Sequence record: PZ386947.1
Strand: one strand, 5' to 3'
From: a phage
Length of the DNA stretch: 64,000 nucleotides
Part shown: positions 36,254 through 39,372 of the stretch, in pieces
How the letters are laid out: each line of letters starts with the position of its first letter
How positions within the stretch are numbered: position 1 is the stretch's first letter
Notes under the pieces: model-generated
Seen by the model: the letters and a program-made list of their open reading frames with translations, nothing else
Database searches by the model: none
What the model was told of the DNA's origin: nothing
Made by a program: the position numbers and the translations under genes

Positions 36254-36727
36254 TTATTTGATTTGTTTAGCAGACCAAATGCGATCTTTAATAATTTTTT
36301 GGATGTCTTCAACATACTCAAGAGAGTGAGCATGTGGATTATCTTTGAAACTATAAGCACGAGCTAGTTTTTGGCCTTCAGTTTTGATTACTAAAAGCTC
36401 TTTAAGGATAGCTTCATATTTGGAGATAATTCCTTTAACAATATTTTTTTCTTGTGCAGCTTTAGGATCTGCTTTAGGAGCAGGTTTACCCGAAGCCTTT
36501 GCAAAAGCAGCGCCAGTAGCAACTAAACTTTTCCAGGCCATACTAACTGCATTTCCCGTAAATCCTTCCGCTTTCATGTCGCGTGCGAACTGGAATCGCG
36601 ATTCATCAGAAGCATCTTTATAAGAATATTTACCCGCTGCAATGGCTGCTTTTGCGACAGCTTGAATTTCGGTGCTAGATGCTTCATTTAACACCGCTTC
36701 ATTTAAAAATTGAGTATATGATTTCAT
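36254..36727 (-). CDS. basic Ala/Lys-rich protein with internal-protein-like N-terminus (candidate head internal protein)
   Basis: 157 aa; N-terminus MKSYTQFLNEA resembles T4 IP capsid-targeting sequence MKTYQEFIAEA; TATAAATA late promoter 36 nt upstream. Confidence 0.55.
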   Translation of the reverse strand: MKSYTQFLNEAVLNEASSTEIQAVAKAAIAAGKYSYKDASDESRFQFARDMKAEGFTGNAVSMAWKSLVATGAAFAKASGKPAPKADPKAAQEKNIVKGIISKYEAILKELLVIKTEGQKLARAYSFKDNPHAHSLEYVEDIQKIIKDRIWSAKQIK

Positions 36728-36763
36728 CTTATTTCCTGTTTTAATTCGTGGTTTTAATATACT

Positions 36764-36771
36764 TATTTATA
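36764..36771 (-). promoter_or_regulatory. late promoter TATAAATA
   Basis: minus strand TATAAATA upstream of ORF 36254-36727. Confidence 0.45.
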
Positions 36772-36773
36772 CT

Positions 36774-36800
36774 AAAAAGCCCCAACCTTTCGGTCGGGGC
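36774..36800 (-). terminator. intrinsic terminator, copy 2 (identical to 36219-36245)
   Basis: same 27 nt hairpin plus U-run; closes the unit between ORF 37111-37461 and the IP-like gene. Confidence 0.6.
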
Positions 36801-37110
36801 TAAGCCTTGCGGCAACCTTGTCGGGGTTCCACCTGCTAAGGCAAGTGTTTGTACGAAACGCCGGGATTCGAACCCGGTTATTAAGCAGTTGACGCTACTC
36901 AATATTTTTAAAAGGCCATATCTCGACCATATCCGAACGTTCCGTCAAAAACGCTACTCGGCTTACGGCAAAGATATTTCCTCGAATCGATAATTCGGTG
37001 CGCCGTTTCTGCTGTGATGTAAGAGGGCATCAATAAACGCAAAGATTATTAACGCAATTCCTTACTCAGGGAACATCAGTCCGACGACTTACCGGTAGCG
37101 ACCCGGTTTC

Positions 37111-37461
37111 TTAATATTCTTTTAAAGCATCAATCTGTTTACGGCGTTCACGCCATAAATCAATTGCTTCATACGCGGATTCAACATTTCGAATTGGACG
37201 GCATTTATATAAAGATTTGTGATTTTGATATTGCGTAGATAACGGAATTTTATCTAAAAGGTCTTTACGTTCAAAGTATTCGTAACCATCTAAGCCAAAT
37301 GAACGATTTTTGAGAAATTGCCAATGACCAAATTCGTTTTGAATATAAATATAATCCGCATGTTGATAAAGTAAATTAATTTCACGAAATGAGATATGTT
37401 TTTCATATTCATTGAAGTAAAATGTTAAATCATGAACTACTAAATAAACATTACCTTTCAT
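37111..37461 (-). CDS. hypothetical protein (116 aa)
   Basis: ORF track; immediately downstream of tRNA-Arg. Confidence 0.5.
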   Translation of the reverse strand: MKGNVYLVVHDLTFYFNEYEKHISFREINLLYQHADYIYIQNEFGHWQFLKNRSFGLDGYEYFERKDLLDKIPLSTQYQNHKSLYKCRPIRNVESAYEAIDLWRERRKQIDALKEY

Positions 37462-37479: not shown

Positions 37480-37555
37480 TGGTCGAGGCAGTAGGGATCG
37501 AACCTACGACCTAGGACTTAGAAGGTCCTTGCTCTTCCTTCTGAGCTATGCCCCG
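37480..37555 (-). tRNA. tRNA-Arg (anticodon UCU)
   Basis: hand-folded cloverleaf: 7 bp acceptor stem, T-arm GTAGG-TTCGATC-CCTAC, anticodon loop CTTCTAA, encoded CCA. Confidence 0.85.
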
Positions 37556-37659
37556 TAATTGGGGTGACCGATGGGAGTCGAACCACCCGAGTCGCAATGA
37601 CAATGGATTTACAGTCCACACCGCTACCTCTACGGGATAACTCCCCTTAATTCTTAATT
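37556..37659 (-). ncRNA. tRNA-like element of uncertain identity (degenerate tRNA or stable small RNA)
   Basis: fills the gap between tRNA-Ile and tRNA-Arg; has GGTTCGACTCC T-loop-like motif, acceptor-like 3' end ending CCCCA, and a hairpin with GUA in a 7 nt loop, but no canonical cloverleaf. Confidence 0.3.
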
Positions 37660-37734
37660 TGGTGGCCCTGGGTGGAATTGAACCACCATCTGGCGATTAT
37701 GAGTCGCTTGCTTGAACCTTCCAGCTACAGGGCC
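37660..37734 (-). tRNA. tRNA-Ile (anticodon CAU, presumably modified to read AUA)
   Basis: matches recalled T4 tRNA-Ile; T-arm GGTGG-TTCAATT-CCACC; anticodon loop CTCATAA; encoded CCA. Confidence 0.85.
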
Positions 37735-37735
37735 T

Positions 37736-37811
37736 TGGTGCTGATTGACGGAATCGAACCGCCGACCTTCTCATTACAAGTGAGTTGCTCTACCTACTGA
37801 GCTAAATCAGC
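37736..37811 (-). tRNA. tRNA-Thr (anticodon UGU)
   Basis: GCTGATTTAGCTCAGTAGG...ACTTGTAATGA...GGTTCGATTCC...CAGCACCA; 1 nt spacer from tRNA-Ile. Confidence 0.85.
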
Positions 37812-37816
37812 AAAAC

Positions 37817-37906
37817 TGGCGGAGGCGATAGGATTTGAACCTATGAGTCGCCGGAGCGACTGCCGGTTTTCAAGACCGGTGCATTAAACCACTCTGCCAC
37901 GCCTCC
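37817..37906 (-). tRNA. tRNA-Ser (anticodon UGA), long variable arm
   Basis: matches recalled T4 tRNA-Ser (GGAGGCGTGGCAGAGTGG...CTTGAAAA...GGTTCAAATCC...CCTCCGCCA). Confidence 0.9.
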
Positions 37907-37912
37907 AAATAT

Positions 37913-38563
37913 TTATATATTGTTAATTTGATTTAGAATTCTTTTTGCTTGAGTATGACTTACGCCAATATGCTTAGCATATTTAGACAATTCGCCACGT
38001 TTAGAAAAATCATATAATTTAGAAATTTCTATTCTTCTTTTTCTTTCATCCGCAGAAACTTTTGCTTCGTTTGCTTTTGCTATTTTACGTTTAGCTTCTT
38101 GAGAATGAGTTTTACCAGCAAAGCCATTCTTCATTAATCCATTTGAAGACCATCCTTTTAATTTTCCGTTAGAATGTGCCTTTTTAACACCCAATGAAAT
38201 TAATTCGCGTTGCTGATCTGTCATAGGATAATTATTTATATGATCCCATCCACCTTCACCTCCAAGTTTTAAATTATACACATCTGGTCTATTTAAAAAC
38301 TCTTCTGTGACAATATTTTTCTCGGCTTCAAGCATAGATTCTTTATCGTCAAAATACTCTAATATTTCTTTAGAAAAATTTTCTATACCATATTTATCTT
38401 GGGCTCTTTTTAATAATTTACCAGAACCCATATATCCATCATCTAAATTTTCGGTAGAATGCACACCAATATAAATTTTATTATTAATTTTATTTGTTAT
38501 TTTATAAAGATAAAAATGCATATCAGTCCCTAATAAAGAACTGAGCGTCTCACGACGAGTCAT
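37913..38563 (-). CDS. GIY-YIG homing endonuclease (Seg-like) inside the tRNA cluster
   Basis: 216 aa; GIY-YIG core YLYKITNKINNKIYIGVHS...GYMGSGKLL; C-terminal HTH-like region; wedged between tRNA-Gly and tRNA-Ser. Confidence 0.8.
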   Translation of the reverse strand: MTRRETLSSLLGTDMHFYLYKITNKINNKIYIGVHSTENLDDGYMGSGKLLKRAQDKYGIENFSKEILEYFDDKESMLEAEKNIVTEEFLNRPDVYNLKLGGEGGWDHINNYPMTDQQRELISLGVKKAHSNGKLKGWSSNGLMKNGFAGKTHSQEAKRKIAKANEAKVSADERKRRIEISKLYDFSKRGELSKYAKHIGVSHTQAKRILNQINNI

Positions 38564-38567
38564 AAAT

Positions 38568-38641
<74 letters not shown>

Positions 38642-38646
38642 AAATT

Positions 38647-38733
38647 TGGTGCGAGAAGTGGGACTCGAACCCACAAGGAAATCATTCCGCAGCATTTTAA
38701 GTGCTGTGCCTTTACCAATTTGACCATTCTCGC
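38647..38733 (-). tRNA. tRNA-Leu (anticodon UAA), long variable arm
   Basis: matches recalled T4 tRNA-Leu (GCGAGAATGGTCAAATTGG...CTTAAAA...GGTTCGAGTCC...TCGCACCA). Confidence 0.9.
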
Positions 38734-38739
38734 GCTATA

Positions 38740-39372
38740 TTATTTATTACGTGAAAAAGACTGTTCTATCAATTCTGGACACTTTCGTTCTATCCATTTT
38801 CTAGCTTTTTGTGGGCTTATACCTATTATTTTAGCAGCTTTACTAACCCATCCAAATTTAGAATAATCGATTTTAACTAATTCTTCGTAAATTTCATCAG
38901 TTAAAATCTTTTCATTAATATTTACCAGTAAATGATATAATTTATTATCATTAGCAATTTTAATGAATCTTTTATAGTTTCCGCCTTTACTTAAACCTAA
39001 TGAAGTAATTGCAGATGATATAGTAGCCGAATTTAATAGTGCGTTTAAAATTTCTTCATCACTAACATTATAACGCTTTTTATTATTTTTAATATTTTTA
39101 CCAGCAAAAGTATCAGTTTGCGAATGGCAGTTTGGACATAATAATCTTAAATTTGATTTAAGATGATTTTTGTTATTTCCATCAATATGGTCTAATTGCA
39201 GAACAATATGCTTATTTTGCCATTTTGAAATTTTACAAATTGCACACTCATATGGAAAAATATTTTCTTTTATTATTTTGTCTTTCAGCTTTCCTGTACT
39301 AAAATTTGGATGTTTTCCTTCAAAAATTTCAGCTAATTTAGTATCCATAATATGATTCCCAATTATTAACAA
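38740..39372 (-). CDS. HNH homing endonuclease abutting tRNA-Leu
   Basis: 210 aa; CAIC...LQLDHIDGNNKNH...LRLLCPNCH HNH/zinc-finger core; C-terminal HTH-like segment; stop 7 nt from the tRNA-Leu 5' end. Confidence 0.75.
   Translation of the reverse strand: MLIIGNHIMDTKLAEIFEGKHPNFSTGKLKDKIIKENIFPYECAICKISKWQNKHIVLQLDHIDGNNKNHLKSNLRLLCPNCHSQTDTFAGKNIKNNKKRYNVSDEEILNALLNSATISSAITSLGLSKGGNYKRFIKIANDNKLYHLLVNINEKILTDEIYEELVKIDYSKFGWVSKAAKIIGISPQKARKWIERKCPELIEQSFSRNK

Follow-up and report, generated by a model that had tools for sequence, protein, structure and literature searches.

The 64,000-nucleotide stretch of phage sequence record PZ386947.1 that was analyzed here (hereafter referred to as the window) contains, on its minus strand, an interval without longer open reading frames that is bordered by an ORF at 37111-37461 on one side and by a transcription terminator on the other. 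A first reading had proposed that this interval gives rise to a structured, possibly stable RNA whose 3' domain carries a T-arm as in tRNA (hereafter the original prediction), which raises the questions of which RNA this is, how it folds and whether it serves a function. Positions 36852-36990 of the minus strand are rnaC, the 139 nt long species 1 stable RNA gene of T4-type phages; the predicted RNA in front of the terminator is thus the rnaC gene as annotated in phages T4, RB3 and Aplg8. The species 1 RNA gene has been known since the 1970s, and because the interval corresponds to the long-annotated rnaC of T4, our finding is a rediscovery of an already known gene. It mainly validates the first reading, which had recognized a long-known RNA gene using nothing but the sequence.

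Identity of the gene followed from a BLAST search of region 36780-37110 against 50,697 phage records, which returned 806 matching records; in 680 of these, the match extended over at least 80% of the query. The records that annotate the region (Aplg8, RB3 and the T4 RefSeq entry) name it rnaD (species 2 RNA) and then rnaC (species 1 RNA), while in the T4 "wild" record KJ477684 rnaC is annotated and rnaD is not. Over 139/139 nt, rnaC of the window is 100% identical to its counterparts in RB3 and Aplg8 and 98.6–98.7% identical to that of T4, from which it differs by two substitutions; strand, annotated ends and location between rnaD and the operon terminator are all equal. Comparison with the T4 species 1 and 2 RNAs, which had been suggested as a check, therefore gave a clear answer, namely 98.6% identity to species 1 RNA, with rnaD located upstream. 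The predicted boundaries (36805-37000) do enclose rnaC, but they have to be corrected: the RNA gene is shorter, with its exact termini taken from GenBank annotation, and positions 36801-36851 represent a trailer of 51 nt preceding the terminator. Likewise, the ORF-free interval does not harbor a single RNA. Besides rnaC it holds a second known RNA, rnaD, which according to the alignment map is separated from rnaC by a spacer of 6 nt. The locations of all features are compiled in the table.

Expression of the RNA is documented for T4. RNAC was detected as a discrete RNA by Northern blotting in T4 infection, and the probe used for this purpose starts with TCGATTCGAGG, which corresponds to the window sequence from 36990 downward (PMC9697503). 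Transcription ends after the species I RNA gene, and rnaC is cotranscribed with the tRNAs (PMC2330249). RNAC and RNAD have been described as small stable RNAs that originate from the tRNA region of T4 and whose roles are unknown (PMC3014915), and reviews as well as a paper from 2025 still list the function of the species 1 and 2 RNAs as unknown (PMC3014915, PMC9697503, PMC12685909). No curated Rfam family reached the gathering threshold over positions 36700-37200, and there appears to be no Rfam model for rnaC. Most of the approximately 750 phage records containing rnaC leave the gene unannotated or overlay it with CDSs for a "hypothetical protein", and in a few records it is labelled tRNA-OTHER, tRNA-Lys or tRNA-Phe. 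The covariance model and the boundaries from the present analysis would mend the annotation of rnaC in these records.

Features of the rnaC locus in the window. Nucleotide i of the RNA lies at window position 36991 - i.
Feature	Position	Strand	RNA nt	Description and basis
rnaD, species 2 RNA gene, ~119 nt	36997..37115	-		Mapped from annotation of T4, Aplg8 and RB3
rnaC	36852..36990	-		Homology to annotated rnaC, model R1, MFE
Acceptor-like stem, 5' strand CGAUUCG	36983..36989	-	2-8	Pairs with nt 131-137
Long arm	36913..36982	-	9-78	Base helix, three helical segments, internal loops
Hexaloop 1 UUGACG (apex of long arm)	36943..36948	-	43-48	Exact reverse complement of loop 2
Linker UUUAAAAA	36905..36912	-		Single-stranded, between long arm and hairpin 2; alignment
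Hairpin 2	36879..36904	-	87-112	10-bp stem
Hexaloop 2 CGUCAA (hairpin 2)	36889..36894	-	97-102	
T-arm	36861..36877	-	114-130	5-bp stem CCGGG/CCCGG, 7-nt loop UUCGAAU
Acceptor-like stem, 3' strand CGUUUCG	36854..36860	-	131-137	No spacer after T-stem, as in tRNA
3' trailer	36801..36851	-		From annotated 3' end of rnaC to terminator; conserved in T4-type phages, outside mature RNA
Intrinsic operon terminator	36774..36801	-		Scan: 10-bp stem with 7 G-C pairs, hairpin 36801-36778 plus T-run

Next, the surroundings of rnaC were inspected. The terminator that had been proposed to end the interval was recovered in the scan, and a terminator downstream of rnaC is also annotated in Aplg8. ARAGORN and Rfam detected a cluster of tRNA genes at 37480-38733 (minus strand), comprising Leu, Gly, Ser, Thr, Met(CAU) and Arg. 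The gene order, i.e. tRNA cluster, rnaD, rnaC, terminator, agrees with T4, RB3 and Aplg8. The fold signal of rnaD is weak (z = -1.56), and its occurrence is limited to T4-type phages and a few related genera; it is missing from many genera that possess rnaC. A covariance model derived from rnaC (R1, see below) detected a single copy in the window, which is rnaC itself (157 bits), and gave no match to rnaD or elsewhere in the window. The 3' end of rnaD reads GCGCACCA in T4 and RB3, including a tRNA-like ACCA tail, and ACCG in the window. The 5' boundary of rnaD is approximate since an ORF is inserted upstream of it in PZ386947.1. This ORF (37111-37461, minus strand; 116 aa; phrog_3355, E = 7e-52; no Pfam match) separates tRNA-Arg from rnaD, two genes that are direct neighbors in T4, and overlaps with its stop codon the 5' end annotated for rnaD, with rnaC being untouched by the insertion. 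Aplg8 has the same gap of 365 bp, which is unannotated.

The tRNA cluster itself shows further peculiarities. The 104-nt gap between tRNA-Met(CAU) and tRNA-Arg contains a tRNA-like sequence at 37573-37644 (minus strand), which scored 22.7 bits with the Rfam tRNA model (gathering threshold 29) and was not called by ARAGORN. Its anticodon loop is CUGUAAA (GUA = Tyr), and the T-arm motif, GGTTCGACTCC, is intact. As RB3 and Aplg8 carry tRNA-Tyr at this place, followed by tRNA-Asn and in Aplg8 also by tRNA-His, the sequence is probably a decaying tRNA-Tyr. The slot that holds tRNA-Pro in T4, between tRNA-Gly and tRNA-Ser, is filled exactly by an ORF of 216 aa (37913-38563, minus strand; phrog_314, E = 1.5e-55), which according to Pfam encodes a GIY-YIG/NUMOD3 homing endonuclease. 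Directly upstream of tRNA-Leu, an ORF for an HNH endonuclease of 210 aa (38740-39372, minus strand; phrog_14736, E = 6e-124) occupies the site of the T4 tRNA-Gln. Neither tRNA-Pro nor tRNA-Gln was found in the 64,000-nt window. With both sites occupied, the cluster carries two homing-endonuclease genes at positions unlike that of segB in T4.

To what extent does rnaC adopt a defined structure? The 139-nt RNA has a minimum free energy (MFE) of -50.2 kcal/mol (z = -4.55), and none of 200 shuffled sequences was as stable. As rnaC is near-invariant within the genus Tequatrovirus, divergent homologues were collected from Kanagawa-, Moon-, Karam-, Teguna-, Gelderland-, Winkler- and Marfavirus, from unclassified relatives and from viral and metagenomic contigs. 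Model R1, which was built from 19 divergent copies, detected 40 further copies in the collected loci; there were 35 distinct sequences with lengths of 138–142 nt, representing more than ten phage genera. Their consensus fold is a four-way junction. Assessed with 25 distinct sequences, 93.0% of the cells were paired as compared to 36–52% when partners were slid, and double-sided changes occurred in 29 of 48 pairs; none of 500 shuffles matched any of the observed measures. RNAalifold reported compensatory changes in 25 of 41 pairs. Thus, folding and covariance analysis, the checks that had been named for the prediction, confirmed that the fold of rnaC is above chance and supported by covariation.

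The long arm has an invariant base helix, AGG/CCU (nt 9-11 with nt 76-78), and reaches nt 73. Its helices 3 to 5 display double changes in 17 of 18 pairs. The arm exists in two unrelated sequence versions, the whole sequence being swapped in the Gelderland- and Marfa-type and in some Kanagawa-type copies without loss of pairing or change in length. In the adjacent linker the core AAAAU is invariant in the alignment. In hairpin 2, which is separated from the T-arm by one unpaired A, 97% of the cells are paired and seven of nine counted pairs exhibit double changes. A repeated motif had also been noticed in the original prediction. The exact repeat is GAGTAGCGT (9 nt), present at 36951-36959 and at 36892-36900 (minus strand) in T4-type sequences, whereas CGAGTAGCG is found only once, in the first copy, and the second copy reads TGAGTAGCG. 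Outside the T4-type genera the full GAGTAGCGT repeat is lost, with the second copy keeping merely AGCGU. In view of this loss, we treat the repeat as lineage-specific rather than functional.

A central question concerns the helix that closes the tRNA-like domain. The T-arm CCGGG-TTCGAAT-CCCGG (36877..36861, minus strand) and the CGTTTCG following it (36860..36854) are present precisely as predicted. For the latter, the original prediction had proposed pairing with an AGAAACG about 140 nt upstream, resulting in a longer RNA (~36805-37010) whose 3' domain is closed by these two elements. AGAAACG indeed exists at 37010..37004, albeit at a distance of ~150 nt, and is complementary at 6/7 positions only. 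A 6-bp helix GAAACG/CGUUUC is possible and appears in the MFE structure of the 344-nt precursor comprising rnaD, rnaC and the trailer; it might arise transiently in the unprocessed transcript of T4-type phages. However, the element resides within the 3' part of the annotated rnaD, where it precedes the mature 5' end of rnaC by 20 nt, and it is confined to T4-type genomes. In non-T4-type lineages the 3' strand of the stem is CGUUCCG or CGGACUG, and in none of the 17 lineages was a complement of at least 6/7 positions detectable within 200 nt upstream. Instead, the strand CGAUUCG at the very 5' end of rnaC (CGRUYCG across homologues) covaries with the 3' strand: the pair A4-U135 is replaced by G-C in 18/25 distinct sequences and in every non-T4-type copy. 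The longer architecture with AGAAACG as closing strand is therefore very unlikely. Another candidate, an internal helix formed by ACGGAACG (nt 46-53) with CGUUUCGU, was suggested by a weak alignment to the tRNA-Sec model. It exhibits no compensatory change and is broken in 12/19 sequences, at the column where the terminal stem covaries. As only CGAUUCG covaries with the 3' strand, in distinction to both other candidates, it is, judged by this pattern, the true partner of CGUUUCG. In the middle of this stem, tandem U.U mismatches (nt 5-6/133-134; 36985-36986 and 36857-36858) are kept in 33/35 distinct homologues and replaced by U-A and C-G solely in the Tegunavirus clade. The conserved tandem U.U may represent a recognition feature.

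The acceptor-like stem with its seven positions and the 5-bp T-stem are contiguous and form a minihelix of 12 positions, which has the dimensions of a tRNA. The T-stem was paired in 100% of the cells and contains two covarying pairs (G-C to U-A or A-U). With six occurrences in the window (0.17 expected), all of them within the tRNA cluster or rnaC, the T-loop motif GGTTCRANTCC is enriched. In most genera the T-loop conforms to UUCRANY, but it is UGCAUNC in the Kanagawa- and Winklervirus copies, so that a canonical T-loop is inessential to the role of rnaC. The likeness to tRNA ends here. Two of the seven acceptor-like positions are the conserved U.U mismatches, unlike in tRNAs, and the positions of the D-arm and the anticodon arm are filled by the 70-nt long arm and the 10-bp hairpin. 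Lacking an anticodon arm, rnaC cannot decode. ARAGORN called neither a tRNA nor a tmRNA at rnaC, and the Rfam tRNA model gave no match at the gathering threshold or at E ≤ 10. The sole match to a tRNA-type Rfam model was tRNA-Sec with 16.6 bits (threshold 47), which relies on the internal helix rejected by covariation, and the best match to a tmRNA-type model reached 10.1 bits (threshold 47) and included the T-arm only. A CCA sequence is not encoded at the 3' end of rnaC, where the flank reads GUA/CAAA, the slash marking the end of the gene.

Inspection of the loops revealed a further element of the structure. The hexaloops of the long arm and of hairpin 2 are complementary at 6/6 positions in 35/35 distinct sequences, and the helix between them was 100% paired in a pseudoknot-aware count. 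Two random hexaloops would be complementary by chance with a probability of ~2.4e-4. The state UUGACG/CGUCAA is found in 27/35 distinct sequences, UUGGCG/CGCCAA in 6/35 (Marfavirus clade) and UUGAUG/CAUCAA in 2/35 (Tegunavirus clade). Evidence for kissing consists in two double changes that arose independently and became established in one multi-member clade each; both are reachable through G.U intermediates, and the loop-loop duplexes have calculated energies of -4.1 to -7.6 kcal/mol. Relaxed scans of viral and metagenome contigs yielded no third substitution event, but solely the same two variant clades. As the hexaloops are exact complements and co-change in two separate clades, the comparison indicates that they form a kissing-loop contact. 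Such a contact would likely lock the body of the RNA; alternatively, and equally compatible with the sequences, the hexaloops could join two rnaC molecules to a dimer. The searchable literature, to which the original sequencing papers do not belong, makes no mention of a kissing-loop contact in rnaC. This detail may hence be new, although we do not claim priority. In any case, the covarying hexaloop pair provides a concrete, mutable handle for probing the function of an RNA that has been an orphan for 50 years.

How is rnaC maintained across phages? It is at least 95% identical in 684/751 phage records, while rnaD is only 80–90% identical in 480/736 records. Its length stays within 138–142 nt even though the long-arm sequence has been replaced, and constraint is tightest on the parts that are foreign to tRNA, i.e. 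the loops, the linker, the base helix and the total length. The tRNA operon of T4-type genomes ends with rnaC. Other phages carry it amid tRNA genes, in the order Trp-rnaC-Gly in Pet-CM3-4, VPA32, Melville and COW86c, Met-rnaC-Gly in Moon and Phe-rnaC-Trp in LC53. In these non-T4-type genera the CCA of the upstream tRNA precedes rnaC by 5–6 nt and the next tRNA gene follows after 6–8 nt. Since more than ten genera of T4-like phages have kept its length and fold, sometimes between tRNA genes, rnaC appears to be functional rather than a relic, and its conservation argues for a function.

Nonetheless, the alternative that rnaC is a decayed tRNA or a passive processing spacer, which retains only the features for excision and has no function of its own, deserves consideration. 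The gene sits in tRNA slots and has kept the acceptor/T minihelix with the anticodon arm missing, a truly decaying tRNA-Tyr-like sequence is located 600 nt away in the same cluster, and T4 mutants with deletions of the tRNA region are viable on laboratory hosts. A relic, however, would not be expected to retain a 70-nt arm and a tertiary contact, nor a fixed length and, in more than ten genera, 29 pairs that covary. Constraint on the non-tRNA parts, with hexaloops that are invariant or co-substituted and with invariant AAAAU and AGG/CCU elements, and the far slower evolution of rnaC than of the adjoining rnaD in T4-type phages argue against a mere relic, and we regard this explanation as unlikely. 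Practically negligible is the probability that one or more small proteins are encoded here instead, even though many GenBank records place a "hypothetical protein" in the interval. The absence of minus-strand ORFs of 60 aa or more, as reported in the original prediction, is correct, the longest ones having 53 and 44 aa, and the plus strand has an ORF of 81 aa with a GTG start (36748-36993), which is open in a purely mechanical sense. Yet, whichever strand and frame is considered, at most 15 of the 35 distinct homologues keep it open, indels of 1–2 nt are tolerated, and substitutions are compensatory with respect to RNA pairing. Moreover, tRNA genes lie 5–8 nt away on either side in several genera, leaving no room for translation signals.

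A different possibility is that rnaC represents a chargeable tRNA-like or minimal tmRNA-like RNA, which is provided with CCA, charged with an amino acid and active at the ribosome. For the CCA-adding enzyme and some synthetases, an acceptor/T minihelix constitutes the minimal substrate, and both the weak match to tRNA-Sec and the tRNA labels assigned by some annotation pipelines point in this direction. But ARAGORN was negative, the Rfam tRNA and tmRNA models came nowhere near their thresholds, and the tRNA-Sec alignment makes use of a helix that is refuted by covariation. In addition to the missing CCA, a G3.U70 pair is present in one clade only, there is no reading frame for a tag, and 139 nt are too short for the pseudoknots of tmRNA. 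Accordingly, a chargeable RNA has a very low probability.

How, then, could the RNA be made and what could it do? rnaC is transcribed in one precursor with the tRNAs that ends at the terminator just downstream, and the tRNA-processing machinery of the host would excise it, with RNase P cutting at its 5' end and exonucleases trimming its 3' end. We infer this latter step also from background on tRNA processing in T4; for the precursor and for RNase P we rely on PMC2330249 and PMC11143913 as well. Release by the tRNA machinery would be the most economical account, because rnaC provides an acceptor/T minihelix and occupies a tRNA-sized slot at a distance of 5–8 nt from flanking tRNA genes. A strict 12-bp ruler places the predicted RNase P cleavage before C2 rather than before the annotated U1. 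As to function, we can only infer a role as tRNA mimic or decoy. Our best guess, which is tentative and of rather low probability, is that rnaC mimics a tRNA without decoding and engages a factor recognizing the acceptor/T-arm end of tRNAs. Of low probability is also the extended version, according to which this mimic is shaped by the kissing loop or dimerized and occupies a host factor for tRNA ends in trans; a tRNA-directed defence or processing enzyme of the host would be a possible class of target. If true, such a trans-acting mimic would give the oldest orphan RNA of T4 a function. Taken as a whole, our best explanation for this locus, namely the rnaC gene with a four-way-junction fold and, as suggestions, tRNA-type excision and a non-decoding mimic role, is in our view highly probable.

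Finally, rnaC can be compared with known systems. It shares with rnaD of T4 the operon, the precursor and the status of a stable RNA of unknown function. However, both RNAs are unrelated in sequence, and rnaD has the weaker fold signal, is more variable and less widespread. In common with canonical tRNAs (RF00005), rnaC has a 7-position acceptor stem stacked on a 5-bp T-stem and the UUCGAAU loop, and likewise the setting in a tRNA array, the tRNA-like spacing and the cotranscription. It differs from them by its length of 139 nt, the tandem U.U and the lack of D arm, anticodon arm and encoded CCA. In the tRNA-like domain of tmRNA, an acceptor stem and a T-arm close a large insert that is not of tRNA type, as is the case in rnaC. 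Both are stable RNAs, and tRNA-type processing, which for rnaC is a prediction, would be a further commonality. In contrast to tmRNA, rnaC has no tag ORF, no series of pseudoknots and no conserved G3.U70, and it reaches only one-half to one-third of the size. The mascRNA, the precursor of the C4 RNA of phages P1 and P7 and the 3' tRNA-like structures (TLS) of plant viruses are non-decoding RNAs as well, whose acceptor/T-arm shape is recognized by tRNA enzymes. There is no kinship in sequence or family between these RNAs and rnaC, and the long arm and the kissing hairpin of the latter are unlike any of them. It is in its working mode that rnaC would resemble the tRNA-like RNAs released by RNase P and the viral TLS, an analogy drawn from PMC11143913 and general background.
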